Source of the DNA: an uncultured Spirochaetales bacterium
Lineage (GTDB): Bacteria; Spirochaetota; Spirochaetia; Sphaerochaetales; Sphaerochaetaceae
NCBI GenBank assembly: GCA_944392695.1
Contig: CALXXN010000003.1
Location: forward strand, 48,617 to 112,616
Direction of reading: 5' to 3'
DNA: 64,000 nt
The notes beneath the pieces are model-generated. The model worked only from the letters and a program-made list of their open reading frames with translations, was not told the origin of the DNA and did no database searches. Each line of letters opens with the position of its first letter. Positions within the stretch are counted from its first letter, which is position 1. Position numbers and translations under genes: made by a program. This document shows positions 5,801 to 63,984 of the stretch, in pieces.

Positions 5801-8622
5801 AGGACCAGATCGTCATAAAGGGTGCCCGTGAGCACAACCTGAAGAACATAGACATCACACTGCCCAAGGACAGCCTCGTAGTCATCACAGGCCTGTCGGG
5901 GTCCGGCAAGTCATCGCTGGCCTTCGACACGATCTTCGCCGAAGGCCAGAGGCGTTACATGGAGTCGCTTTCCTCCTATGCCAGGCAGTTCCTGGGACGG
6001 ATGGAGAAGCCTGATGTCGATTCGATCGAGGGGCTGTCCCCGTCGATCGCGATTGAGCAGCGCTCGACCCAGCGCAACCCGCGCTCAACCGTCGGTACGA
6101 TCACCGAGATCTACGATTACTACCGCCTGCTCTATGCCAGGATAGGCCATGTGCACTGCCCAAAATGTGGTCGTGAGATCTCCACGATGTCGGTCGACCA
6201 GGTCATAGACAGCATATTCAAGCACGAGGAGGATGGGCGTCTTGTCATACTCGCCCCCATCGCGATGGGGCGCAAGGGTGAGTTCAAAAAAGTCTTCACC
6301 GATGCCTATCAGGCCGGTTACAGCCGTGTAGTCGTCGATGGACGTACCCTGATGCTTCCTGATGAGATGCCCGCCTTGGACAAGAAGGCCAAGCATGACA
6401 TCTCGATTGTCGTGGACCGCCTGATCCTCCGACGCTCGGACCGCCAGCGCCTTGCCGACTCGATTGAACGTGCCTTCTCGATGAGCGAGGGCCTTGTCGA
6501 GGTCGAGTATGTCAGTGAGGGCAGGAAGGATTTCTTCAGCGAGCGCAACTCCTGTCCGACCTGTGGCATCACGGTGCCCGACCTGGAGCCCAGGCTCTTC
6601 TCCTTCAACAACCCCTTTGGCGCCTGCCCTGAGTGCAATGGTCTTGGGATCAAGAGCGAGTTCGACATACACAAGATCATCCCCGACCCGGCGAAGAGTT
6701 ACAACGAACGTGGCATCGTGACCCATGGCCCTGACGCCAAGGTGTCCCATGCCTGGATCACAGCCCTGGCCAAGGCCTATGACTTCTCCTTGGACACGCC
6801 GCTTTGCGATTGGCCCAAGGAAGCCAAGCATGTCCTGTTGAAGGGTGGCGGCAAGCTCTTGGATGTGAAGTATGAGAACAGGAACGGGACGCACAGCATG
6901 TCGCGCAAGGCCCAGTATCCAGGCATACTCGTCGAGCTGGAGCGCCGCTACATGGAGACGACCTCCTTCGCTGTGAAGTGGTCGCTTGAACAGTTGCGCT
7001 TCTCCCATGAGTGCCCTGCCTGCCATGGGCGCCGCCTACGTCCAGAGGCCCTTGCCGTCAAGGTCGGTGGCATCGACATCTGGGAGCTTTCCAGCAAGTC
7101 TGTCAAGGACACGGTCGCTTTCTTCAATGAGCTGCAGCTCACGCCTGTAGAGGAGGAGATCAGCCATCAGATCCTCAAGGAGATCAGGAGCCGCCTTGCC
7201 TTCTTGATGAACGTAGGACTGTCCTACCTGACGCTCTCGCGCCCTGCGGCGACACTCTCTGGAGGAGAGGCCCAGCGCATCAGGCTCGCCACACAGGTCG
7301 GATCCGCCCTGACTGGTGTCCTCTACGTCCTTGACGAACCTTCGATTGGATTGCACCAGAGGGACAACAACAAGCTGATTGATACGCTCAAGGGCCTGAG
7401 GGACCTTGGCAACACTGTCATCGTCGTCGAGCATGACGAGGATACGATCCGCGCCGCGGACCATGTCGTAGACCTGGGCCCCGGGGCAGGGGAGAAGGGT
7501 GGTACCATCATGGCCCAGGGCACACCTGACGAGGTCGCACGCCACCCTGAGTCTGTCACCGGTGCCTTCCTGAGCGGACGCTTGAAGATCGATGTGCCAA
7601 AGAAGAGGCGTCCTGGCAACGGCAAGTCGATCAAGATCCTGGGTTGCAACAAGAACAACCTCAAGGACATCGATGTCGAAATCCCGCTTGGCAAGCTGGT
7701 CACGATCACCGGTGTCTCAGGGTCTGGCAAGTCCACATTGCTTAATGAAATCCTCGTCCCTGCTGTCGAGGATGCGATCACACGCAAGCGCAAGGTCGAG
7801 CTGTCTGGTTACCGCGAGGTCGTCGGCATCGAGAACATCGACAAGATCATCAACATAGACCAGAGCCCGATTGGACGCACACCACGCTCGAACCCGGCGA
7901 CTTATGTTGGTTTCTTCACGCCGATAAGGGAGCTTTTCGCCAAGCTTCCAGAGGCCAAGGCCCATGGCTTCACGGCCTCACGTTTCTCCTTCAACGTCCC
8001 AGGGGGACGCTGCGAGAACTGCCAAGGTGATGGAACGCTGAAGATCGAGATGCACTTCCTTCCTGATGTCTTCGTCACCTGCGATGTCTGTCATGGCAAG
8101 CGCTTCAACAAGGAGACACTGGCTGTCGAGTACAAGGGCAAGAACATCGCTGATGTGCTGGACATGACGGTCGCGGAGGCGGTCGAGTTCTTCGCCCCCT
8201 TCAATTCGATCCGCACGAAGCTCGAGACACTGATGAGCGTGGGCCTGGATTATATCCGGCTTGGACAGAGCGCCCTGACACTCTCTGGTGGAGAAGCCCA
8301 ACGTATAAAGCTCTCACTTGAGCTGAGCAAGCGTTCGACAGGACGTACGCTCTATGTCCTTGACGAGCCGACGACTGGACTGCACTTCGCTGATGTCAAG
8401 AAACTCCTTGAGGTCCTTGACCGCCTGGTTGATGCGGGCAACAGCGTGATCCTCATCGAACACAACCTTGATGTGATCAAGTGTTCCGACTATCTGATAG
8501 ACCTGGGGCCGGAGGGAGGCGACGGGGGAGGGCGCATTGTCACCAAAGGTACTCCAGAGGAGGTGGCTGCCGTGGAGGAAAGCCACACCGGGCGCTTCCT
8601 GAGGAGGTATCTTGCGCCATAG
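5797..8622 (+). CDS. uvrA: Excinuclease ABC subunit UvrA
   Basis: 941 aa. Starts [12 protein letters not shown]...[15 protein letters not shown], has a second Walker [11 protein letters not shown], zinc-finger Cys pairs and two LSGGEAQRI signatures. ATGA overlap with the ispG stop. Confidence 0.97.
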
Positions 8623-11600
8623 GCTGGGGATCCTTCTTCTCATACTGCTCTTCCTGTGCACGTTCCTGGCGGCAGCTGACGAGGCCGCCTGGTTCATCAC
8701 GAACGCAGATGAGGAGACCCTGCGCTCAATGGCCGGGGTCCGTGGCCTCGATGCATCGCTGCCGCTTGCTGACCTGAGGGAGGCCTTGCTGGCTGGCCGG
8801 GAGGCCTTCACGACAGAGGAAGCCGCCTCCACTGGGGAAGGGCCCTGGTCCCTCGAGGTCGTCAAGGCCGATGACATGGAGGTCCTGCCTTCGGGCCTGG
8901 TCTCTCTTTCTGGTGATGTCGAGGTCTCCTTCACCACTGCTGAAGGGGAGTCCCCCCTGTCGTTGATGGCGTCCAACATGCTCCTCGATCCTGTGGCGGG
9001 CAGGCTTTCAGCCTATGGTGGGGTCCGATACCGTGACAGTGCCTCAGATGCGGGCCTCCAGGAGGTCGATGCTGATATCGTCACCTATCTGTATGATTCA
9101 GGTGACCTGCTTGTCTCCGGCGGCACTACGACAAGTGAAAGGACGAACAACGAGGATGAGAGCGTCACCTTCCATACGACAGGCACACTCCTCAACTACA
9201 GGGCAGCTGATGGGGGCATGTTCTTCCAGGATGGCTACCTGACCTCCAATCCTGATACAGCCTATTCATCAATCACCGCGGACAGCATAGCCTTGCTTTC
9301 AGGCGGGGACATGTTCCTGACAGGGGCCTTCCTCTCAATTGGAAGGGTGCCTGTGCTCTACATGCCGGCCTTCTTCTTCCCAGGCAGCAGGCTTGCCTTC
9401 AACCCCGCCTTCGGCTTCAACAGCTCACGGGGTGCGTTCTTCTCAACGACATGGGAGGTCTTCGGCACCTATCCAGGCTTCGCAGAAGCCGAGATGAGTT
9501 CCTTCGCCTCCTTGCTCAGGACCTCATCTGATGAGTCCATGGTGTCCAATGGCCTTTACTATGAGCCAGGTGAGCCGGAGGGTGGGCTTGCCCGCTGGGC
9601 TGTCGACAGCGGCAGCTATCTCGCGCTCCTGTTTGATGTATACAGCTCCACAGGTTTCCTTGTCGGCTTCGACACCCTCCTCAAACCCTTCGATGGGGCG
9701 TTGACGCTCTCCTCCGAATCCTCGATCATCCTGGGCCCGGAGAACCGTTACACACTGGGCAATTGGCGCTGGTACTCATTGAACGAGGCCTCCCTTTCGA
9801 ATTCCTACGCAAGCCTTTCGTTCTCGCTTCCGATTTATTCAGACCCCTATGTCCTACGTGAGTACTCGAACAGGCTGACAAGCTTCTCAATTGATTCAAT
9901 ATTTGGTGCGAGCCAGGATTTCCCTTCGACAAGGACTTCCACTGTATCAAGTTATGATGCCTACCTCTCAGGCTCCATCAGGTTGCCAAGCCAGCTGCGT
10001 ACGGACTGGGTCTCCTCGCTCTCCTTGTCCTCCATAAGGGCAGGGGCGTCCTTCGACTGGGTGGCTGCCCGTAACGGGGAGCCAGGGCACTACGAGATCA
10101 GTGACATCACATTGCCATCCTTCAATTTCTCGATGTCAGGCCAGCTTTTCCGCTTCTCCTCTGATGGCACGCTCAGCACGGAAGAGGCTGTGGATGATGG
10201 CTGGGACATCACACAGCAGTTCGTGCTCTCGGATCCATTGCTGTACGATCTCTACGTGATCGAGCCGGAACGGGCTGCAGCCCGCTCTGCTGACGAGTAC
10301 TTCGTCTCACTTGGATACAGCGTCAGTGAGCGTTTCAGCCATGAATTCGAACTCGACATGGAGACATGGCAGGCCAGTGAGGGCCAGGTCAGCTCCAATG
10401 CCAGCGTGCGCTTCAACCTTGAAGCGGGGCTTGGCCGCTGGCTCAAGATGACAGAGACATTGACACCTGGCTACCTCTACGAATGGGACGAGGCTGATGA
10501 TGGCAGCCAGAGCCATGACTTCACCCTGCTTTCGACAAGCAATGTCTCCTTGCCCTTCATCGGCCTGGAGTATGAGTTGTCAACCTATCTATACAAGTTC
10601 TCAAGCGACTGGGATGGCAACAGCTGGAGCGAGGAGGAGGTCCTGGCCTCTTTCGACCGCGACAATGTGCGCTCCCATAGCCTGACATTCTCCCAGGGCA
10701 TCGGCTCTGTTGACAACTATGGACGGCTGACAGCTTCACTGCGCTATACGCTGCCACCGCTTTCATCCTCACTTGAACCAAGGCTTGGTTACAGGCTTGG
10801 GGGGTTCTCTGCCGCCTTCTCATGGAGGTTCGAGGAGAAGGAGGATGGCTCCTTTGACTACAGGAGCGATGATGTGGCCCTCTCTCTTGGATACACAGGC
10901 ACCCATTTCACACTGTCCTTCTCAGCGCTTTACGAGAGTGCGGACCTTGAAACGGCCACGTCCATCTGGGCACCGCTTGACCTGACGGCCTCGGCCTCTG
11001 TACGCACAGCTGACAGGCGCTGGGCACTGTCAGGCTACGTGGACTGGCAGGCCTCCTCAGGAGGGGAGGTGGACGTCTTCGATGATGTCCGGGCCGTGCT
11101 GACCATGCCTTGGCTCAGTTTCACCTGGAACATGACTACGGATGATGGGCGCTTGAGGAACGAGTACTTCCTGGTCGAGAGCGACATCGAGGACATCGGA
11201 CTCAGTTTCTGGTATGGGCGCATCCGGCTCAATGCCATACTTGATGCCAGGCTACGTTATGATTTCCTCAACCCATATTCCTCGTCCTTCAGCCTGACGA
11301 CAGGGATTGGCTTCTCAATCGCAGAGTTCCTTGACCTCAACATCTCCCTCACGACGACGAACAATGGATTCTACCGCTACATGGAGGACGGGACCTTCTC
11401 CTTCCGCTTGATGTGGGATGACCTGATGCGTTCCTTCGACTTCATCGGGGATGGGAGGCGCAACACCCAGTTCAACATGGAGAGCCTCGACCTGGAGCTC
11501 ATCCATTATATGGATGACTGGGACCTGCACCTGCGTTATACGGCGACGCTGGAGTCAAGGGGCCGGGACTACACCTGGGTCCCCACCTTTGCGATCTTCC

Positions 11601-11698
11601 TCAGATGGAATACAATGCCTGACTTGAAGGTGGATGAGACCTGGGAGCAGGGGGTCAATGGAAACTGGACACCTGGCTCGAGCCTCTACGCCGATTGA
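8612..11698 (+). CDS. Large outer-membrane protein, LptD/OstA-like (putative)
   Basis: 1028 aa with a signal peptide ([24 protein letters not shown]). The OstA-like N-terminal region reads VSLSGDVEVSF...ASNMLLDPVAGRLSAYGGVRYRD. An LptD-like segment reads FLSIGRVPVLYMPAFFFPGSRL..NPAFGFNSSRGAFFSTTWEVFG. The rest is long, aromatic/Ser-rich and beta-barrel-like. Overlaps the uvrA end by 11 nt. Confidence 0.55.
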   Translation: MRHRLGILLLILLFLCTFLAAADEAAWFITNADEETLRSMAGVRGLDASLPLADLREALLAGREAFTTEEAASTGEGPWSLEVVKADDMEVLPSGLVSLSGDVEVSFTTAEGESPLSLMASNMLLDPVAGRLSAYGGVRYRDSASDAGLQEVDADIVTYLYDSGDLLVSGGTTTSERTNNEDESVTFHTTGTLLNYRAADGGMFFQDGYLTSNPDTAYSSITADSIALLSGGDMFLTGAFLSIGRVPVLYMPAFFFPGSRLAFNPAFGFNSSRGAFFSTTWEVFGTYPGFAEAEMSSFASLLRTSSDESMVSNGLYYEPGEPEGGLARWAVDSGSYLALLFDVYSSTGFLVGFDTLLKPFDGALTLSSESSIILGPENRYTLGNWRWYSLNEASLSNSYASLSFSLPIYSDPYVLREYSNRLTSFSIDSIFGASQDFPSTRTSTVSSYDAYLSGSIRLPSQLRTDWVSSLSLSSIRAGASFDWVAARNGEPGHYEISDITLPSFNFSMSGQLFRFSSDGTLSTEEAVDDGWDITQQFVLSDPLLYDLYVIEPERAAARSADEYFVSLGYSVSERFSHEFELDMETWQASEGQVSSNASVRFNLEAGLGRWLKMTETLTPGYLYEWDEADDGSQSHDFTLLSTSNVSLPFIGLEYELSTYLYKFSSDWDGNSWSEEEVLASFDRDNVRSHSLTFSQGIGSVDNYGRLTASLRYTLPPLSSSLEPRLGYRLGGFSAAFSWRFEEKEDGSFDYRSDDVALSLGYTGTHFTLSFSALYESADLETATSIWAPLDLTASASVRTADRRWALSGYVDWQASSGGEVDVFDDVRAVLTMPWLSFTWNMTTDDGRLRNEYFLVESDIEDIGLSFWYGRIRLNAILDARLRYDFLNPYSSSFSLTTGIGFSIAEFLDLNISLTTTNNGFYRYMEDGTFSFRLMWDDLMRSFDFIGDGRRNTQFNMESLDLELIHYMDDWDLHLRYTATLESRGRDYTWVPTFAIFLRWNTMPDLKVDETWEQGVNGNWTPGSSLYAD

Positions 11699-30321: not shown

Positions 30322-30939
30322 ATGTCGAAGGAATTCATAACATGCGACATGATCCGGGACGCTGCCTTGAAACTCGTCTACAGGATGTACACAGAAGACC
30401 ACTTCGTGCCGGACGTCATCTATGACTCATTGAGGGGAGGCGCCTACATGGCCAATGTCATGAGTGAGTTCTACAAGCTCATAGCCCTCAAGGAAGGCAA
30501 GACGCCTGTCTTCTATGCTGCTGTAGTCGCGCGCAGCTACAACCTCGTCAAGGACCATGCTGGTCATGTCGACATCGATGGTTGGACCTGGTCACCACGC
30601 AACCTCAAGCCAGGGCAGAAGGTCCTCATTGTCGATGACATCTTCGACACAGGCATGACTGTCAACGCCCTTGTATGTACTGTAATGGACTGTGGCATCC
30701 CAAGGGAGGATATCAAGGTGGCTGTCTATGACTACAAAGTGCCTCTCTTCAAGAACGAGAAGCCCCTTCCAATCCAGCCTGACTACTGGTGCCGCAAGCA
30801 TGTCCTTGAGAAACCAGAGGATGAGAGGTGGATCCACTACACCTGTCATGAGTTCATCGGACTCACCCATGATGAAGTCGATGAGGTCTACACAGACAGC
30901 GAGGTCCGTGAGATCCTGCACAAGATCCTTGAAGACTGA
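30322..30939 (+). CDS. Phosphoribosyltransferase (purine PRTase-like)
   Basis: 205 aa with the PRPP-binding motif KVLIVDDIFDTGMTV. Size and layout resemble xanthine/hypoxanthine-guanine PRTases. Specificity unknown. Confidence 0.7.
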   Translation: MSKEFITCDMIRDAALKLVYRMYTEDHFVPDVIYDSLRGGAYMANVMSEFYKLIALKEGKTPVFYAAVVARSYNLVKDHAGHVDIDGWTWSPRNLKPGQKVLIVDDIFDTGMTVNALVCTVMDCGIPREDIKVAVYDYKVPLFKNEKPLPIQPDYWCRKHVLEKPEDERWIHYTCHEFIGLTHDEVDEVYTDSEVREILHKILED

Positions 30940-30993
30940 AAAACAAGTTCCAATCGTCATGTAAGAGAGAAGGGAGCCCGCTTGGACTCCCTT

Positions 30994-31020
30994 CATCGTC
31001 ATCATCATCATCATCATCAT
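30994..31020. repeat. Trinucleotide microsatellite (CAT)n
   Basis: CAT CGT (CAT)7 at 30994-31020, with the perfect (CAT)7 at 31000-31020. It sits in the 92-bp gap between convergent genes, just after a 7-bp hairpin AAGGGAG/CTCCCTT (30970-76 / 30987-93). Confidence 0.9.
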
Positions 31021-53041: not shown

Positions 53042-55636
53042 ATGGCTGGATCGAAGAGGGGTGGTGGACCCACCCCGATGATGAAACAGTATTTGGAAGT
53101 GAAGAGCGCTCATCCTGATGATGTGCTCTTCTTCCGTCTTGGTGACTTCTATGAGATGTTCGGTGAGGATGCCATGGAAGTCAGCCGCCTGCTGAACCTC
53201 ACGCTGACCCATCGTGGTGACCAGCCGATGTGTGGGATCCCCTATCATGCGGCCAAAAGTTATCTGAAGAGGCTTCTGGACGCAGGGCGCAAGGTCGCGA
53301 TCTGCGAGCAGCTCTCGCTTCCAGAGAACTCAAGGGAACTTGCCAAGCGTGAAGTCATCCAGGTCTATTCCCCTGGCACTGTCGTCGATGATGAGTTCCT
53401 CGACAGCCATCGTGACAACTTCGTCCTCGCGCTGGACATCGTGAAGCAGTCCTGCGCCACAGCCTTCGCAGATATCTCATCAGGTGCCTTCTATTGCAAG
53501 CTGTTCCCCCTCAAGGACCTCCAATCAAGCCTTCCCGGCCTCCTTTCGACCTGGTCCGTGAGTGAGGTCCTTGTCCCGGATGACCTGTACTTCACAGATT
53601 CTTCAGTGCGGTCCATGCTCGACCAGTCAGGGGCAGGTGTCACCAAGCTGCCTGCCTGGGACTTCTCTGTGAAGGCAGGTCGCAAGGCATTGGAGGAACA
53701 GTTCTCAATGGAGGGCACGGCCGCCTTCGGCCTGTCTGGGGACGATGTCGTCCTGCGTCCCATCGGGGCCCTGCTGAAGTACCTCAGGGACATGAGCCAC
53801 AGCAGCCTGCCACAGATCAGCAACCTGCGCGTCCTGACGGACGAGGGGTACATGCTGATTGATGAGTCCTGTGAGAAGAACCTGGAACTTGTACGTTCCC
53901 TCCAGGGAGGCTCCGCCTATACCCTCCTGAGTGCGATTGACGAGACACGCAGCGCTGCAGGCAGCCGCCTCCTGAAGGAGTTCATACTCCATCCACTGTG
54001 TGACAAGAGCGCCATCGAGGAGCGTCAGGGCTGGGTCACACGTCTTTACGATGACATTGATGAGCGCAATAGGATAAGGGAGCTGCTTTCATCTTCCTCA
54101 GATCTTGTGAGGATTACCTCGAAGCTAGAGATGGGCCGCTCTGTCGTCCGTGACCTGATTGCGATCAAGGAATCCTTAAGCGCCTTCTTCTCACTCGTAT
54201 CCAGTGATGAGTGCTACCTCTCCCTGCTCGAAGACTCGCTGGTTGAACCAGGACGACTGGTCTCCCTCGCTGATACGATAAGCCGTGCGATCAATCCTGA
54301 ATGCACAAATGCCGACAAGGCCCTCTCTGTCATCCTCCCTGGCTTTGATGGGAAGCTGGATGAGCTCAAGGGCCTGCATGACAACAGCTCGACCCTCCTA
54401 GCCGGTTATCTTGAGAAAATCAAGGCTGAGAGCGGGATCAACCTGTTGAAGATAGGGGAGAACCGCATCATCGGTGTCTATCTGGAGGTTCCGAAAAGCC
54501 AGCTGGACAAGGTCCCTGAGGGTTTTGTCCGCCGCCAGACCCTTGTTGGAGGAGAGCGTTTCACGACAGCTGAGCTCTCGGAACTCGAGGAGAGGATAAA
54601 CAGCGCTGAAAGTGCGGCAGCCGAACGTGAGAAGGAGATTTACAACAGCATCGTCAAGGAAGCCTGGTCGCTTCGCAAGGACCTCGCCCTTGTCGGACGC
54701 CTCTTCGCCCTCCTGGATGTCTATCAGTCCTTCGCCCATGCAGCCGCCCTGCATGCTTATGTGAAACCGGAAATCATGGAGGAGGGGGAGCTGGAGATCA
54801 TCGACGGACGCCATCCTGTTGTCGAACAACATATCGCATCATCGTCCTTCGTCAGGAACAGCTTCTCCTCTGCCAAGGCACGCTTCGCCCTGATCACAGG
54901 ACCCAACATGGCAGGTAAGTCAACCTATCTGAGGCAGACCGCCTTGATCACGTTGATGGCCCATATAGGGTCCTACGTGCCTGCATCCAGTGCCAGGATT
55001 CCACTGACCGACAGGATCTTCTGCCGCGTTGGTGCATCCGACAACCTCGCCAGGGGTGAATCTACCTTCTTGGTCGAGATGCAGGAGGCTTCCTTCATCC
55101 TGCGCAGCGCCACAAGGCGCAGCCTTGTCATCATGGATGAGATCGGCCGTGGAACCTCGACCCAGGATGGCATGAGCATAGCCTATGCTGTGATGATGTA
55201 CCTCCTGGAGCTTGGTCCTGTGACGCTCTTCGCAACCCACTATCATGAGCTCACGATGATCGACACCAGCGCCATGCAGCTCCTGACGCTTGAAGTCAGC
55301 CAGGACAAGAGTGGCATCGTCTTCCTGCGCCGTGTCATCGAAGGCGTGGCCAAGAGCAGTTACGGCCTGCATGTCGCGAAGCTCGCCGGCATCCCGTCCT
55401 CTGTCATCCGCATGGCCTCAGCCTTCCAGAAGCGCCATTTCGCAGACTATGACCTTGGACGGGAAGGGGAGCAGCTCGACCTCTTTGTCGACACCTCCAC
55501 TGTGGACAACAGCGCACTCGACTCGATCATCGACGAGCTTATGGACTTCGATGTCTCCACATCGACACCCCTCGAGGCCTTGGTCAAGCTCGGCAAGCTC
55601 CAAGAGGATGCCCGCTCCCTGAAGAACCCTGGATGA
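53042..55636 (+). CDS. mutS: DNA mismatch repair protein MutS
   Basis: 864 aa. TPMMKQYLEVK...FFRLGDFYEMF and Walker A GPNMAGKST, followed by DEIGRGTST. Confidence 0.96.
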   Translation: MAGSKRGGGPTPMMKQYLEVKSAHPDDVLFFRLGDFYEMFGEDAMEVSRLLNLTLTHRGDQPMCGIPYHAAKSYLKRLLDAGRKVAICEQLSLPENSRELAKREVIQVYSPGTVVDDEFLDSHRDNFVLALDIVKQSCATAFADISSGAFYCKLFPLKDLQSSLPGLLSTWSVSEVLVPDDLYFTDSSVRSMLDQSGAGVTKLPAWDFSVKAGRKALEEQFSMEGTAAFGLSGDDVVLRPIGALLKYLRDMSHSSLPQISNLRVLTDEGYMLIDESCEKNLELVRSLQGGSAYTLLSAIDETRSAAGSRLLKEFILHPLCDKSAIEERQGWVTRLYDDIDERNRIRELLSSSSDLVRITSKLEMGRSVVRDLIAIKESLSAFFSLVSSDECYLSLLEDSLVEPGRLVSLADTISRAINPECTNADKALSVILPGFDGKLDELKGLHDNSSTLLAGYLEKIKAESGINLLKIGENRIIGVYLEVPKSQLDKVPEGFVRRQTLVGGERFTTAELSELEERINSAESAAAEREKEIYNSIVKEAWSLRKDLALVGRLFALLDVYQSFAHAAALHAYVKPEIMEEGELEIIDGRHPVVEQHIASSSFVRNSFSSAKARFALITGPNMAGKSTYLRQTALITLMAHIGSYVPASSARIPLTDRIFCRVGASDNLARGESTFLVEMQEASFILRSATRRSLVIMDEIGRGTSTQDGMSIAYAVMMYLLELGPVTLFATHYHELTMIDTSAMQLLTLEVSQDKSGIVFLRRVIEGVAKSSYGLHVAKLAGIPSSVIRMASAFQKRHFADYDLGREGEQLDLFVDTSTVDNSALDSIIDELMDFDVSTSTPLEALVKLGKLQEDARSLKNPG

Positions 55637-55642
55637 ACAAGA

Positions 55643-55666
55643 CTCCCCGCCATTGCTGGCGGGGAG
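55643..55666. terminator. Shared hairpin between convergent mutS and the Big_2 lipoprotein gene
   Basis: CTCCCCGCC (55643-51), loop ATTGCT, GGCGGGGAG (55658-66). The flanking U-tracts are poor on both strands. Confidence 0.45.
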
Positions 55667-55690: not shown

Positions 55691-58600
55691 TCAGTTTGGC
55701 CAGACCAGCCTTCGATCATTGTACTTGTACTCACAAGTCGATGGATCCTCACTTGATAAACCAATTCCTGATCCATCTTTGTTGTCTACAGTCAAGTCAA
55801 CAGAGAGGATGCCTGCCCTGGATCTTGGTTCGGCCGATATGTCAAGTACACAAGTTCCATTGATGTTTGTTGTCCTTGTTTCTGTTTCATCAGCATAGAC
55901 CTCGATTTTGAAATTGGTGAATTCCACAGTCCATGCTGAACCAGATGTGTTTGACCAAGTAACACCTGCTGGAGGATTTGTGGTGTGGCCATCTGCCAAG
56001 TCTGACTGTATTTCTTTCAACTTGTAGATGATTGCCTCGACGCTAGCAGCATCGAATGGATTGCTCGCAGGAATAGAGTCGAGGTCCATGGCGATTAGAT
56101 TGATATGGCCAATGATTTCTCCATCATATAATGGGATCATGATGACTCCATCATCAGTCCTCGTCCAATATTCCTCAGATTCTGCGCTTGGCCCATCAGA
56201 ATCCATGTATCGCAGATACCAGACATCATCACTCGCAGCTTGTTGGAGGAGGTTCGAATAGCCGCTTGTAGACTCTGGATCGTCAAGAGTGTAATCGCCA
56301 TAGATGTAACGCTGTGTCAGGTTGTCATCTGAGACAATAATGTATGTAATCACCTCAACACCATACTGGTCAGACATGTCATACAAGAATGCTTTACCAG
56401 AAATCCAGTCTGGGGCATGCAGGCCGTCTGTCCCGAGAGAGGTCAGCGTGCTGGGATCGACAAGCCCAGGTCTTGAAGGCCACTCGGATTCTGGAATGCT
56501 TGTGCAATATGCAGGCTGGAAAACAGGAGTGCCTTCGTTTTGCACGGAAGTGAAAAGGATGTCCTGTCCTTGTTTTGAGATGAGGAAGACGTAGTGGTCC
56601 GTCGAAGTCAGCTCGTCTGTATCCAGCGTTCTACGCTCCTCTGTCATCTCCAGGTAGTAATGCTGGTTGCTCGACCACTGCCCTGTGATTGTCACAGTGA
56701 TTTTGTTGTACTCATTCTCCTGTGATACAGGTAGTCTCTCCTCAGGTTCAGAGAACATGTTCCCTGTAACCATGACTCCAAGGATGTTGTCCCTGGTGTC
56801 ATTCGCCCTGATAAACATGTCACTCCCCATCATCTCAAACGCATATGGACCGTTGAACCAGGAGGGGAGTACAACAGATTCTGTATCTCTTTCATCTTCT
56901 GCCTTGAATCTCATCTGTGCGAAGGTGATTGGAAGCACCAGGTCGCTGTCATCCACCATGCTGTATTTGACGGGGCTTTCATCTATTGTGACTGTGAGAT
57001 CGATGCCGGAGCTGGTCTTGATCATGTCGATCTTGGTTTCTACTTCGGTCCTCAGCGTGACTGTATAGGCGCTGTCGCTTCCCCTCTGATTGAGGATCTT
57101 GTAGTCGCTGCCACCAAGCAGGAATCCCATGGCATCAACGTAGGCTCCTTCCGATGGACTTATCCAGAGTTGGAAATCATCTGCTTTGACATCGACGATG
57201 AATGTGACATCGGAACCCTGGAAATCCATGTTTCCGGAGAATGTGCGGTCCGCAAGCCAGGATGGAACATTGATTCCCTCTGTCCCAAGGTCAGTCATTC
57301 CATCAGAGACTGTGACCGTACAGGTGGCACTCTTATCTCCAGCTGTAGCTGTGATGCTTGCTTCACCCTCGGCAAGGGCTGTGACGATTCCGTCCTCGAT
57401 GCTTGCAACAGTATCGTCAGAACTTGTCCATGTGACAGTCTTGTCAGTCGCGTTCTCTGGAAGGACCGTGGCTGTCAACCTTGTGTTCTCACCGATGACA
57501 AGCTCAAGGCTGTTCCTATCAAGCGTGATCGATTCAACGGGAACCGCCCTGACTGTGATGGTGCAGCTTGCACTGATTTCCTCATTAGAGACAGAGGTCG
57601 CTTTAATCGTGGCTGTTCCAATTCCATGTGTCGTCACACGTCCATCATCAACAGAGGCGATGCTGTTGTTGGAAGAGGACCAGGAAACCCTCTTGTCAGT
57701 CGCCCCCTCTGGTTCGACAGTGGAAATAAGCTCGACAGAGTCCCCGATGAAGACTTCTACATCTGTTTCATTCAATGTGATTCCAGTCACTTCGATAGGA
57801 GTGACAGTGACTGTGACACTGTCAGACTTGCCACCATTGACAGCTGTGACTGTGATGACCGCATCCCCAACGTCTACTGCATTTACAGTACCATCTGCTG
57901 TTACAGTTGCGACTGCTTCGTTGGACGAAGACCAGGTGACAGAGGTCAGGGCGTCTTCTGGTGAAACAGAGTAGGTGAGCTGCTGGCTTCCTCCAATCTC
58001 AAGATTGATGTTATCAGCTCCCTCGATTGTGATGCTGTCAACAATAGAAGCCGCATTACCAAGCACCGTCACTTCACACTCAGCAGTGAACACCTGCTCT
58101 TCAACTGTGATCGATGCCGTGATTGTGACAGGACCTTCTGATATGGCTCTCACGAGACCACTTTCAGAAACACTTGCAAGTGTGTCATCAGAAGACGTCC
58201 ACACTATGGTTCCTTCGAAAGTGGCGTCAGCTGGCTGCACGGAAGCTGAGAGCTGGAACGTCGCACCCTTCTTGAGCTGAAGTTCTGCGTTGCTGATTGA
58301 AAGACCTGTGACAGGAACCGGGGCAGGGGAGACTGTGACTGTGCAAGAATCCGTCTTACCATTTCCAGTCACGACTGTAATGACAGCAGTTCCTTCTGCG
58401 ACTGCTGTGACAGTACCATCCTGGGAGACGGAGGCGATTGAGGAGCCTGTGCTATGCCATTCGAGGATATCAATAGCATCCTCCGGTGTCATTGTCGCAA
58501 TGAGTTTGACTGTTTCTCCGACTGTCAGATCCAGGGTTTCCTTGTCAAGGCTGACAGATTCAGCTTTCACTGGATCTTTTACAGTGATGGTGACCGAGTC

Positions 58601-58918
58601 TGTCTTGCCACCTGCTGTTGCCGTGACAGTGGCTTGCCCTGCCTTGTGGGCAGTGTAGGAACCATCTGATCCGATTTCGAGGACTGTCGTATCACTGGAT
58701 GTCCAGGTGACAGTCTTGTCAGTCGCATCACTGGGCTGGACTGTCGCTGTGAGGCTGCCAGTTCCTCCTGTGATGACTTCGAGTGAATCACCTACGTCTA
58801 TTGTGACAGAGGAGACTTCGATGACTGTTGGGGTGTTCCCGCCGCATGAGATCGCAAGGGCGAGGACCAGGGTAAGCAGGCACAATGCGGATGTGCGTGC
58901 TTTTACATGTCTTTGCAT
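55691..58918 (-). CDS. Large surface lipoprotein with six tandem bacterial Ig-like (Big_2) domains and an uncharacterised C-terminal half
   Basis: 1075 aa with lipobox LALAISC (Cys25). Six repeats of about 85-90 aa carry the Big_2 signature (e.g. VTWTSSDTTVLEIGSDGSYTAHKAGQATVTATAGGKTDSVTITV; VSWSSSNNSIASVDDGRVTTHGIGTATIKAT) and span aa about 33-537 (DNA about 57308-58822). I recognised nothing in the remaining 540 aa or so. Confidence 0.8.
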   Translation of the reverse strand: MQRHVKARTSALCLLTLVLALAISCGGNTPTVIEVSSVTIDVGDSLEVITGGTGSLTATVQPSDATDKTVTWTSSDTTVLEIGSDGSYTAHKAGQATVTATAGGKTDSVTITVKDPVKAESVSLDKETLDLTVGETVKLIATMTPEDAIDILEWHSTGSSIASVSQDGTVTAVAEGTAVITVVTGNGKTDSCTVTVSPAPVPVTGLSISNAELQLKKGATFQLSASVQPADATFEGTIVWTSSDDTLASVSESGLVRAISEGPVTITASITVEEQVFTAECEVTVLGNAASIVDSITIEGADNINLEIGGSQQLTYSVSPEDALTSVTWSSSNEAVATVTADGTVNAVDVGDAVITVTAVNGGKSDSVTVTVTPIEVTGITLNETDVEVFIGDSVELISTVEPEGATDKRVSWSSSNNSIASVDDGRVTTHGIGTATIKATSVSNEEISASCTITVRAVPVESITLDRNSLELVIGENTRLTATVLPENATDKTVTWTSSDDTVASIEDGIVTALAEGEASITATAGDKSATCTVTVSDGMTDLGTEGINVPSWLADRTFSGNMDFQGSDVTFIVDVKADDFQLWISPSEGAYVDAMGFLLGGSDYKILNQRGSDSAYTVTLRTEVETKIDMIKTSSGIDLTVTIDESPVKYSMVDDSDLVLPITFAQMRFKAEDERDTESVVLPSWFNGPYAFEMMGSDMFIRANDTRDNILGVMVTGNMFSEPEERLPVSQENEYNKITVTITGQWSSNQHYYLEMTEERRTLDTDELTSTDHYVFLISKQGQDILFTSVQNEGTPVFQPAYCTSIPESEWPSRPGLVDPSTLTSLGTDGLHAPDWISGKAFLYDMSDQYGVEVITYIIVSDDNLTQRYIYGDYTLDDPESTSGYSNLLQQAASDDVWYLRYMDSDGPSAESEEYWTRTDDGVIMIPLYDGEIIGHINLIAMDLDSIPASNPFDAASVEAIIYKLKEIQSDLADGHTTNPPAGVTWSNTSGSAWTVEFTNFKIEVYADETETRTTNINGTCVLDISAEPRSRAGILSVDLTVDNKDGSGIGLSSEDPSTCEYKYNDRRLVWPN

Positions 58919-58949
58919 GTTTTCCCTCCACTTTTGTTTTTACAGGGAA

Positions 58950-58982
58950 ATAGTACCCCCCCCCCCCCAATCAGCTTGTCAA
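58950..58982 (-). promoter_or_regulatory. Promoter candidate of the Big_2 lipoprotein gene with a homopolymer in the spacer
   Basis: Minus strand reads TTGACA (58982-77), AGCTGATT + G13 (a 21-nt spacer), then TACTAT (58955-50). About 20 nt downstream comes GGAGGG, then 5 nt, then ATG at 58918. Confidence 0.45.
58956..58968. repeat. Homopolymeric tract C13 (G13 on the coding strand of the downstream gene)
   Basis: Directly counted: 5 C at 58956-60 plus 8 C at 58961-68. I noticed no longer homopolymer elsewhere in the window. Confidence 0.95.
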
Positions 58983-59205
58983 CGTTTTGTAATTTGTTGT
59001 TTTACAATGTGTTATTTGTGTTTGATTTGTTAAGTCGCTTAACAGCTTGCATGAGGTTCTTTTGGGTTTTGTTTGAGTCTTGGTTTAGTTTGCAATGTAA
59101 GCTTCTTGATTAGTAGTTCCTTTTGAAAGAAAGATTTAGATGTTGTTTGGCTTTGGAGTGGAGCGGAGAGGAAAGGAGGCGTTTGCCACCTTTTTGATAA
59201 GTCTA

Positions 59206-59235
59206 TTGACAGGAACAACATGAAAAGCCTATCCT
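59206..59235 (+). promoter_or_regulatory. Weak sigma70-type promoter candidate for rimP-nusA-infB
   Basis: TTGACA (59206-11), an 18-nt spacer, then TATCCT (59230-35). It lies between two terminator-like hairpins. Confidence 0.3.
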
Positions 59236-59261
59236 TGGGACAGTTCAATTCTACAAGAGAG

Positions 59262-59291
59262 AAAGGAACCCCGCACGGTGTTCCTTTTTTT
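59262..59291 (+). terminator. Terminator/attenuator-like hairpin in the rimP leader
   Basis: AAAGGAAC (59262-69), 10-nt loop, GTTCCTTT (59280-87), with the T run continuing to 59291. It ends 12 nt before the rimP ATG. Confidence 0.45.
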
Positions 59292-61293: not shown

Positions 61294-63984
61294 ATGAGCG
61301 AAGAGAAAGCCAAGATAAGAGTGATTAAGAAGGGGCAGGGTGGCACGGCCACTCCTACCCCGGCCCAGAGTACGGCCCCAGCTGCCGCTCCAGCTCCAGA
61401 GAAGAAGGTGGTGGTGATCAAGAAGAAGATCGTCACCGTCAAGGTCAAGGAGGACAAGAAGGAGGAGGCCCCACAGGCGGCCCCTGTCCAGCAGAAGGCC
61501 GAGCCTCAGGCGGCGCCCAAGTCGGCAAGCCCGGCACCTGCTGCCAAGGAGGCTGCTCCTGCACAGCAGCGCCGTCCCCTCGTCCAGCCTTCCAGTGGCC
61601 AGGCAAGGAGTGCGGCTCCAAACCGTCTCGCATCGACTGTCCCGGCGGCCAACCGCAACCTGGTTGGTGGTGAGCGTGTGCACAGCACCGTCCACAACGG
61701 ACCTGTCGTGATCAAGGCAGCCGACCTCCCACCAGTGCCGGGACAGGTCGTCAAGCCATCAGGTGATACCCCTGCACGTCCTCGTGTGGCTGGTATCGTC
61801 GGTGGACGTCCTACACGTCCGCAGGGCCAGGGCCGCTATGGTGACCAGCGTGGCCAGAGGAGGCCTTTTGGTCAGGATGGCCAGCGCCCTGCAGATGGGC
61901 AGCGCCGTCCCTTCGGACAGCGTGATGGCCAGGGCCAGAGGGCTCCTTATGGGCAGCGTCCTGGTTTCCAGGGTGGACGTCCGGGCTTCCAGGGCGGCAG
62001 GCCTGGCTTCCCATCACGTCCTGGTTTCCAGGGTGGACGCCCTGGAGTTGGCGCAGGTGCGACCCCGGCTGGTGCTATGAACCAGAAGGGTGCCCAGCGC
62101 AAGGGACCCAGCAAGAGGAAGGATGGTGGTGACTACAACAGGAACCGCCGTGACCAGGAAGTCGACTTCCAGTACCAGCAGAAGAAGAGGGAGGAGGCCA
62201 AGCTCTCCGCCATACCGAAGTCGATCGACATCATGGAGAACATCACTGTCAGCGACCTTGCCAAGAAGATGAACCTCAAGGCAAGCGACATCATCTCCAA
62301 GCTCTTCAAGATGGGCATGATGGTGACGATCAACCAGCAGATCGACCATGAGACTGCGGAAATCATCGCATCCGAGTTCGGTTGCGAGGTCCACCTTGTC
62401 TCCCTCTACGATGAGACTGTCATCGAGAGCGAGGAGGACAGGGAGGAGGACATGGTCCCGCGCGCCCCGATCGTCACGGTCATGGGCCATGTCGACCATG
62501 GTAAGACCAAGCTCCTTGATGCCATCCGTTCGACGGATGTCGCAGGCGGCGAGTTCGGTGGCATCACCCAGCACATCGGCGCCTACAAGGTCAACGTCCC
62601 TGGACGTGGCGATGTCGTCTTCCTCGACACCCCGGGCCATGCCGCCTTCTCGATGATGAGGGCCCGTGGCGCCCAGATGACGGATATCGTCGTCCTCGTC
62701 GTCGCAGCCAATGATGGCGTCATGCCCCAGACAAGGGAGGCTATCGACCACGCTACTGCGGCCAAGGTGCCTATCATCGTGGCCATCAACAAGTGCGACC
62801 TGCCTGATGCCAACCCGGAGAGGGTCATGCAGCAGCTGTCTGACATCGGCCTGATTCCTGAGGAGTGGGGTGGTCAGACCCTCTACTGCCGCATCAGCGC
62901 CTTGAAGAAGGAAGGTATCGACGATCTGCTTGATACGATCCTCCTCCAGGCCGAGATGCTCGAACTCAAGGCCAACCCGAACTGCCGTGCGGTCGGCAAG
63001 GTCCTTGAGTCCAGGATCGACCAGGGCCGTGGCACTGTCGCCACAGTCATCGTCCAGAAGGGTACATTGCACCAGGGTGACTACTATGTCGCCGGCATCT
63101 ACCCAGGACGTGTGCGTGCCATGTTCGATGACAAGGGCAAGAAGATCACAGAAGCCGGTCCTTCGACTCCTGTCGAAATCATCGGCCTGAGCAACATCCC
63201 ATCCGCAGGCGATCCCTTCCAGGTGACCGAGGATGAGAAGCAGGCCCGCAGTGTCGGTGCCAAGCGCCAGGAGCTCGAGAGGATGGGCAACACAGGTGCT
63301 GGCAACAAGTTCACGCTTGAGGACATCAACAAGAAGGCCGCCGAAGGTGAGATCAAGGAACTGAACCTGATCATCAAGGGAGACGTACAGGGCTCTGTCG
63401 AGGCCCTCCAGGGCACCCTGGAGAAGCTCAGCACGAGCGAGATCCGCCTGCATGTCCTGCGCGCCGCCGCTGGTGCCATCATCGAGAGCGACATCACGCT
63501 TGCCGCTGCTTCGAATGCGATCGTCATCGGCTTCAACGTCCGCCCGACTCCTCGTGCCCTGGCACTGGCCGAGCAGGAGAGGGTCGAGATCAGGAAGTAC
63601 AACATCATCTATGACGTCGTCGATGATATCAAGGCAGCCATGGAAGGCATGCTCTCACCCGAGATCAAGGAGGTCGACATCGGACGTGGCGAGGTCCGCG
63701 AGGTCTTCCGTGTCCCCAAGGTCGGCCTGGTCGCTGGTGTCTACATCCTCGATGGCAAGGTCACGCGTGGCAGCTTCGTCCGGGTCATCCGCGATTCGAT
63801 CCAGATCAACAAGGAGAACGTCCAGATCACTTCCCTCAAGAGGTTCAAGGACGACGCCAAGGAGGTCAACGTCGGTTACGAGTGCGGTATCGGACTGCAG
63901 GATTGGCAGGACCTCCAGAAGGGCGATGTGCTTGAATTCGTCCAGAAGGAAGAGGTCGCACGCAAGTTGGAGAGCGCTGAATGA
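61294..63984 (+). CDS. infB: Translation initiation factor IF-2
   Basis: 896 aa with a low-complexity Pro/Gly/Gln/Arg N-terminal region. G domain motifs [21 protein letters not shown] and NKCD. Confidence 0.97.

Follow-up and report, generated by a model that had tools for sequence, protein, structure and literature searches.

A variable poly-G tract in the predicted promoter spacer of a mosaic lipoprotein gene: a candidate phase-variation switch in an uncultured gut spirochaete

To our knowledge, work on phase variation by simple repeats has been confined almost entirely to pathogens. Sigma-70 promoters have an optimum of 17 nt for the spacer that separates their -35 and -10 boxes, and in Mycoplasma hyorhinis a poly-A tract in the promoter spacer switches individual variable surface lipoprotein (vlp) genes on and off. 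In Treponema pallidum, tp0126, which encodes an OmpW homologue, has a poly-G tract in its -35/-10 spacer; a spacer of 17 nt gives the best transcription, and the tract length varies within and between strains (PMC7864442). The same source describes the porA gene of Neisseria meningitidis, where the length of a poly-G tract in the spacer sets expression from high to none via spacing (PMC7864442). For T. pallidum tprE/G/J, eight or fewer Gs permit transcription, and the tract of tprE/G/J/L is located at or beside the -10 region and the start site and is not believed to work via spacing (PMC7864442). Our literature search on spirochaete promoter tracts of this kind returned exclusively papers that concern T. 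pallidum.

Here, we describe a G13 tract located upstream of a gene encoding a lipoprotein of 1075 amino acids in the window, i.e., the whole stretch of 64,000 nucleotides that was analysed. Read 5' to 3' on the minus strand, the region comprises ACAAAACG-TTGACA-AGCTGATT-GGGGGGGGGGGGG-TACTAT-TTCCCTGTAAAAACAAAAGT-GGAGGG-AAAAC-ATG, and the gene and its signals are arranged as follows:

58983-59030, minus strand: A-rich stretch, about 73% A+T, directly 5' of the -35 box, resembling an UP element by its composition
58982-58977, minus strand: -35 hexamer TTGACA, six of six matches (TTGAGA in one haplotype)
58976-58969, minus strand: fixed part of the spacer, AGCTGATT, 8 nt (in two haplotypes AGCTGAT, then directly G)
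58968-58956, minus strand: G13 tract, GGGGGGGGGGGGG (C13 on the plus strand), the variable part of the spacer, 7-14 in length in other assemblies
58955-58950, minus strand: -10 hexamer TACTAT, four of six matches, among them the key A2 and T6, invariant in all loci
58944-58941, minus strand: predicted transcription start zone, 6-9 nt past the -10 box, placed by standard sigma-70 promoter geometry
58929-58924, minus strand: ribosome-binding site GGAGGG, 5 nt 5' of the ATG, read from the sequence
58918, minus strand: start codon ATG of the lipoprotein gene, read from the sequence
55691-58918, minus strand: coding sequence (open reading frame) of the 1075-aa lipoprotein
55643-55666, minus strand: terminator-like hairpin of 10 pairs, G+C-rich and with a T-rich tail behind it, separating the lipoprotein gene from mutS

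The spacer TTGACA-N8-G13-TACTAT consequently comprises 8 + 13 = 21 nt in the window, and a gap of 20 nt, TTCCCTGTAAAAACAAAAGT, separates TACTAT from GGAGGG. This minus-strand reading with its coordinates coincides exactly with the anatomy and the 21-nt spacer proposed in an earlier note on this DNA, and the sequence likewise bears out its description of a perfect -35 box and of a -10 box matching at four of six positions. The 60 nt upstream of the -35 box contain 73% A+T (55% A), as compared to 56% G+C in the genome. Our own hexamer scan of the lipoprotein strand revealed no other pair above 8/12 in the 384-nt intergenic region. Canonical sigma-70-like matches are found at other genes of the window, e.g., TTGACT-17-TATAGT and TTCACA-17-TAAAAT, and the rimP gene has its own match TTGACA-18-TATCCT in the same divergent intergenic region, 240 nt distant, which indicates that the organism appears to use promoters of the sigma-70 type. 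From the sequence, we infer that the TTGACA and TACTAT hexamers represent the working promoter of the lipoprotein gene. The repeat is thus placed between the two hexamers, the arrangement that characterises phase variation by spacer length, as judged on sequence prediction only.

A translational switch by frameshifting was considered and discarded, as the tract, with its end 38 nt 5' of the ATG, is outside of the reading frame, and an in-frame TAA located 24 nt upstream of the ATG, between tract and start, excludes this mechanism. Rfam did not report any known RNA in the intergenic region. Directly downstream of the -10 box, the sequence UUCCCU can pair with AGGGAA of the ribosome-binding site (58922-58949, minus strand), and the resulting fold of 50 nt has a free energy of -11.5 kcal/mol (z = -3.8, none of 200 shuffled sequences being as stable). 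Sequestration of the ribosome-binding site by this pairing would require transcription to begin upstream of the predicted start.

The N-terminus of the encoded protein, MQRHVKARTSALCLLTLVLALAISC followed by GG, with MQRHVKARTSALCLLTLVLALAIS-C25 as candidate lipobox, fits the signal pattern of bacterial lipoproteins in our own reading of the sequence, with a signal peptide and the lipobox cysteine at position 25. Genes for outer-membrane machinery, namely BamA and LptF/G, are located nearby, and the lipoprotein is presumably surface-exposed. Pfam assigns six Big_2 domains to residues about 30-540 (E = 1.2e-84); homology to Tpr or major outer sheath proteins is absent, the Pfam matches being confined to Ig domains of the Big_2 type. 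The C-terminal half, comprising 536 amino acids (residues 540-1075; 55694-57301, minus strand), is nearly unique: among 1.84 billion representative proteins, an exhaustive search with HMMER yielded only its own cluster and two weak matches (E = 1.8e-06 and 3.4e-05). The homologues P0001 and P0003 contain this region. A PDB sequence search with the C-terminal half gave no meaningful match, and its AlphaFold model, based on a three-sequence alignment, is uninformative with a pLDDT of 35.

The alleles of the lipoprotein are 100, 92, and 76% identical and are located between mutS, rimP, and nusA with 99-100% identity. Their divergence is patchy, since blocks with 20-60% nucleotide differences adjoin identical blocks when the window is compared with the strains of ERZ28613696 (L002) and SRR14679159 (L004). 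The lipoprotein gene displays a dS of 0.12-0.42, with mosaic blocks exceeding 0.5, versus 0.03-0.10 for mutS, and its overall dN/dS is approximately 0.4 versus 0.05 for the adjacent mutS. Together, the patchy divergence and these rates point to a recombinational mosaic under relaxed or diversifying selection. In the window, no partial copy of the gene was found that might serve as a silent donor cassette, as for tprK or vls. Several metagenome contigs end inside the lipoprotein gene.

The tract itself is exceptional in this genome. G13 is the sole homopolymer longer than 7 nt in the 64-kb window, where the second-longest run of G or C comprises 6 nt, and it exceeds the length of about 8 nt from which a homopolymer is regarded as prone to slippage. 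An i.i.d. model predicts 0.006 runs of at least 13, and of 200 first-order Markov simulations, only one produced a G/C run of 13 nt, the usual maximum being 8-9 nt. As the longest other G/C run is 6 nt versus the simulated 8-9 nt, the genome is depleted in long runs with the exception of G13. In line with this, no G/C run of at least 7 nt was found in the approximately 20 kb of the same genome beyond the ends of the window, so that runs longer than 6 nt are absent from about 84 kb apart from G13, nor was one found in nine loci of 8-13 kb from related species.

Exact-protein look-ups with RimP, NusA, the lipoprotein, and the two close homologues of the latter recovered the locus from 14 further public assemblies, all belonging to the same species. 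The assignment to one species is based on NusA, which is 100% identical in L001-L004, L031-L038 having been retrieved by an exact NusA match; MutS is 99-100% identical in L001-L005. Including the window and after collapsing two likely duplicate pairs, tract length was counted in 13 assemblies; five further contigs with an identical allele lie outside of this count. Two DNA-pattern scans of JGI metagenomes for the promoter yielded no match, and the assemblies in which the species was met stem from ENA, Logan, and NCBI alone. In metagenomes, the consensus length of a long G run can be off by one, and the lengths in the following list are to be read accordingly:

ERR4096624 (L001): G14, spacer of 22 nt
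Window and ERZ28613971 (L036, L040): G13, spacer of 21 nt
ERZ16268037 (L030): G12, spacer of 20 nt
ERZ28613696 and ERR4096591 (L002, L003): G11, spacer of 19 nt
ERZ16268080 (L029): G10, spacer of 18 nt
ERZ16268224 (L023): G9, spacer of 17 nt
ERZ17292904 (L024): G9, spacer of 17 nt
ERR10610609 (L028): G9, spacer of 17 nt
ERZ16268165 (L026; -35 box TTGAGA, GAT directly followed by G): G10, spacer of 17 nt
ERR10610562 (L037; -35 box TTGAGA, GAT directly followed by G): G10, spacer of 17 nt
ERZ17292902 (L025; -35 box TTGAGA, GAT directly followed by G): G9, spacer of 16 nt
ERZ16268197 (L027): G7, spacer of 15 nt
SRR14679159 (L004): interrupted tract G5AG2, spacer of 15 nt

Hence, the 13 spacers measure 15, 15, 16, 17 (five times), 18, 19, 20, 21, and 22 nt with a mode of 17 nt. 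A spacer of 16-18 nt is present in seven of the 13 assemblies, in five of which it is exactly 17 nt, and the remaining six lie outside of this range, so that both optimal (16-18 nt) and, by prediction, non-permissive spacers, as expected for this type of phase variation, occur in nature. With 13 assemblies, the excess at 16-18 nt fails to reach statistical significance against a flat distribution of 15-22 nt. Five loci without a single difference over 1040 flanking bases contain G9, G9, G9, G10, and G12, respectively, and one extra G is the sole difference between the 9228-nt contig of ERR4096624 and the window. Such differences in length on identical flanks, another hallmark of spacer phase variation, indicate that the tract changes far faster than its surroundings. 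The earlier note had predicted that tract length would differ between genomes and that G9 and G10 would restore near-optimal spacing; the first expectation is borne out by lengths from G7 to G14 across the 13 assemblies on identical or near-identical flanks, and the second agrees with the 16-18 nt observed with G9 and G10, which is the commonest state.

The sequences flanking the tract are conserved. In the most divergent strain, that of SRR14679159, substitutions reach approximately 18% in the middle of the intergenic region, and only one substitution outside of the tract region is found in the part that begins some 60 nt 5' of the -35 box and extends to the ATG, the distance from the A-rich stretch to the ATG being roughly 90 nt. 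The A-rich stretch of about 60 nt upstream of the -35 box is free of substitutions in all strains, including this one. The low divergence at the promoter fits constraint, though boundaries of mosaic recombination could also yield it.

Taken together, we consider it probable that the lipoprotein gene is subject to phase (or volume) variation by the length of its promoter spacer, and the same interpretation given in the earlier note is supported as far as sequence comparison reaches. Slipped-strand mispairing during replication would add or remove Gs in the spacer, and the number of Gs would determine how far TTGACA and TACTAT lie apart and in which rotational phase. Tracts of G8-G10, or of G9-G11 in the haplotypes that lack the last T of the fixed part, would provide a spacer of 16-18 nt and consequently an active promoter, and shorter or longer tracts would result in weak or no transcription. 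Given 21 nt versus the optimum of 17 nt, the window is predicted to be in a low or off state. A population would then represent a reversible mixture of cells with, without, or with graded amounts of the lipoprotein, which would be of advantage against host antibody, phage, or other selection directed at the surface. The effect of tract length on transcription is what established sigma-70 geometry and the tested precedents lead us to infer, and reversibility within a clone as well as the selective agent are presumed by the model. The sole hint of different tract lengths in one population is provided by G13 and G14 in two otherwise identical contigs that may derive from one sample. The strains predicted to be in the off state keep full-length reading frames (1075 aa in the window and in ERR4096624, 1072 aa in ERZ28613696), as expected of a reversible switch and not of gene decay. 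The strain of SRR14679159 likewise has an intact gene of 1052 aa; with its interrupted tract G5AG2, which is presumably stable, and a spacer of 15 nt, this is awkward if 15 nt corresponds to an off state.

The latter strain also bears on a different explanation, namely that the tract is hypermutable and modulates transcription independently of the spacing between the -35 and -10 boxes. As proposed for tprL and tprE/G/J of T. pallidum and for opc of N. meningitidis, it could overlap the true -10 or start region or the site of a regulator, and thereby affect open-complex formation or factor binding. Besides the intact or apparently intact genes in the two strains with 15-nt spacers (L004 and L027), the potential pairing of the ribosome-binding site with UUCCCU, provided that the latter is part of the transcript, would agree with this explanation; the pairing would matter only with a start further upstream. 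However, under such a model it would be a coincidence that the hexamers flank the tract exactly and that the modal spacer is 17 nt, and neither the scan nor inspection revealed an alternative -35-like box in or beside the tract at the correct distance from a -10 box. We therefore regard a spacing-independent effect as unlikely. Another view holds that the tract is a neutral hypermutable hotspot, the gene being driven from elsewhere or its expression being insensitive to length. This view is in agreement with the observation that all lengths from 7 to 14 are tolerated in nature with intact reading frames, and that the enrichment at 16-18 nt lacks statistical significance. On the other hand, a neutral 13-mer is unexpected in about 84 kb in which G/C runs exceeding 6 nt are otherwise avoided, the tract is located exactly between the sole good pair of hexamers upstream of the gene, and the core promoter flanks are conserved beside diverged DNA, all of which makes neutrality quite unlikely.

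Very improbable, in our view, is that the real tract is constant and that its length differences are artefacts of sequencing or assembly. The indel error of Illumina sequencing does rise in long G runs, and the G13 contigs (window and ERZ28613971) and the otherwise identical G14 contig (ERR4096624) may derive from one sample. The range from 7 to 14, however, far exceeds errors of one base, and independent assemblies agree with each other, as the ENA and Logan assemblies both show G11 for the strain with the P0001 allele, and the window and ERZ28613971 both show G13. Moreover, 14 assemblies, with accessions from six different number series, place the tract inside long contigs and between unique flanks.

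The gene is flanked by the convergent mutS gene (53042-55636, plus strand) and the divergent rimP-nusA-infB genes (from 59303, plus strand). The hairpin at 55643-55666 is likely the terminator of the lipoprotein transcript, and its position before mutS suggests that the gene is self-contained, comprising promoter, leader, coding sequence, and terminator, and thus monocistronic. The idea that read-through from the lipoprotein gene runs antisense to mutS and thereby feeds back on slippage was dropped in view of the strong hairpin terminator between the two genes. The nearest GTDB species representatives, with 76-80% NusA identity, are MAGs of uncultured Spirochaetales and Candidatus Aphodenecus pullistercoris, and GTDB assigns the genus Aphodenecus to the Sphaerochaetaceae (PMC8035907). 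In the relatives, mutS and rimP are co-oriented and either adjacent or separated by unrelated genes, and neither a gene for a Big_2 lipoprotein nor a G/C run of at least 7 nt was found in the mutS-rimP loci of the GTDB relatives. The absence of gene and tract from these relatives points to a lineage-specific insertion at a species-variable junction. In related species (L006-L014), this junction measures from 150 nt to 2.3 kb and contains a MATE-like transporter, small secreted proteins, or a 611-aa open reading frame; judged from these sequences, the mutS-rimP junction behaves as a variable integration spot.

Several further elements were observed in the window. The rimP leader contains a hairpin, AAAGGAAC...GTTCCTTT followed by T7 (59258-59291, plus strand), between the predicted promoter (59206-59235) and the rimP ATG (59303), and from its sequence it looks like an intrinsic terminator or attenuator of rimP-nusA-infB; the 67-nt leader has a minimum free energy of -17.9 kcal/mol with a z-score of only -1, the fold not being statistically distinctive. 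The hairpin recalls the autoregulation by NusA that is described in other bacteria. A degenerate 21-nt repeat in infB (61957-62045, plus strand; 4.4 copies, 64% matches), located in the region encoding the N-terminal part of IF-2, is probably the usual repetitive, low-complexity sequence of that part. Between two convergent genes that end at 30939 and 31032, a (TCA)9 repeat (30993-31020) occupies part of the short gap, just past a GGGAG...CTCCC hairpin. Moreover, a 1028-aa open reading frame (8612-11698, plus strand) adjoins uvrA and has no Pfam match on record in public gene calls.

If the proposed switch exists, repeat-based phase variation in the Spirochaetota extends beyond the pathogenic treponemes, and the tract would serve, in a commensal, as a natural marker of selection directed at the surface, with the lipoprotein as the likely main target of such selection in this species. 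As tract length differs among public metagenomes, the predicted on or off state can be scored from existing reads and correlated with host, phage load, and metatranscript levels without culturing. The mechanism is a textbook one; the evidence from the comparison of assemblies is unusually clean, and public reads permit a direct check of the prediction. A more far-reaching version holds that this is a true contingency locus, in which one poly-G tract toggles a species-specific mosaic lipoprotein, the populations of different hosts being fixed at different states by host-specific selection through phage or IgA, with the state readable from metagenomes; here we see the chances as evenly balanced.

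Among the closest described systems is tp0126, with which the locus shares a spirochaete background, a poly-G tract in the spacer, a promoter of the sigma-70 type, and, as presumed here, an envelope protein as product. In this respect, the parallel with T. pallidum drawn in the earlier note stands, and it is less fitting for tprE/G/J/L, where the tract is placed at or beside the -10 region and the start site. The latter genes resemble the locus in that a promoter poly-G tract of variable length precedes genes for surface antigens, here a presumed one, of a spirochaete; according to Pfam, however, the protein described here is without Tpr homology. TP0126 is an OmpW barrel of a pathogen, whereas the lipoprotein described here combines Big_2 domains with a C-terminal half that has hardly any relatives, and is encoded by an uncultured gut bacterium related to the Sphaerochaetaceae. 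In addition, T. pallidum contains many such tracts, as compared to the one seen here in about 84 kb. The porA gene likewise contains a homopolymeric G tract in the spacer between the -35 and -10 boxes, but encodes a porin in another phylum and loses expression upon shortening of the tract, whereas the spacers of the present locus deviate in either direction, to 15 nt as well as to 19-22 nt. The vlp genes share with it a homopolymer between the -35 and -10 boxes and a highly variable lipoprotein as product; they differ by a poly-A tract, a multigene family, and size variation due to intragenic repeats, as opposed to the poly-G tract, single gene, and mosaic alleles found here. Thus, the mechanism would be a known one of the tp0126, porA, and vlp type, all features of this class that could be assessed in the sequence being present, and what appears to be new is the proposed use of this promoter-spacer logic in an uncultured lineage of gut commensals to control a hypervariable lipoprotein.
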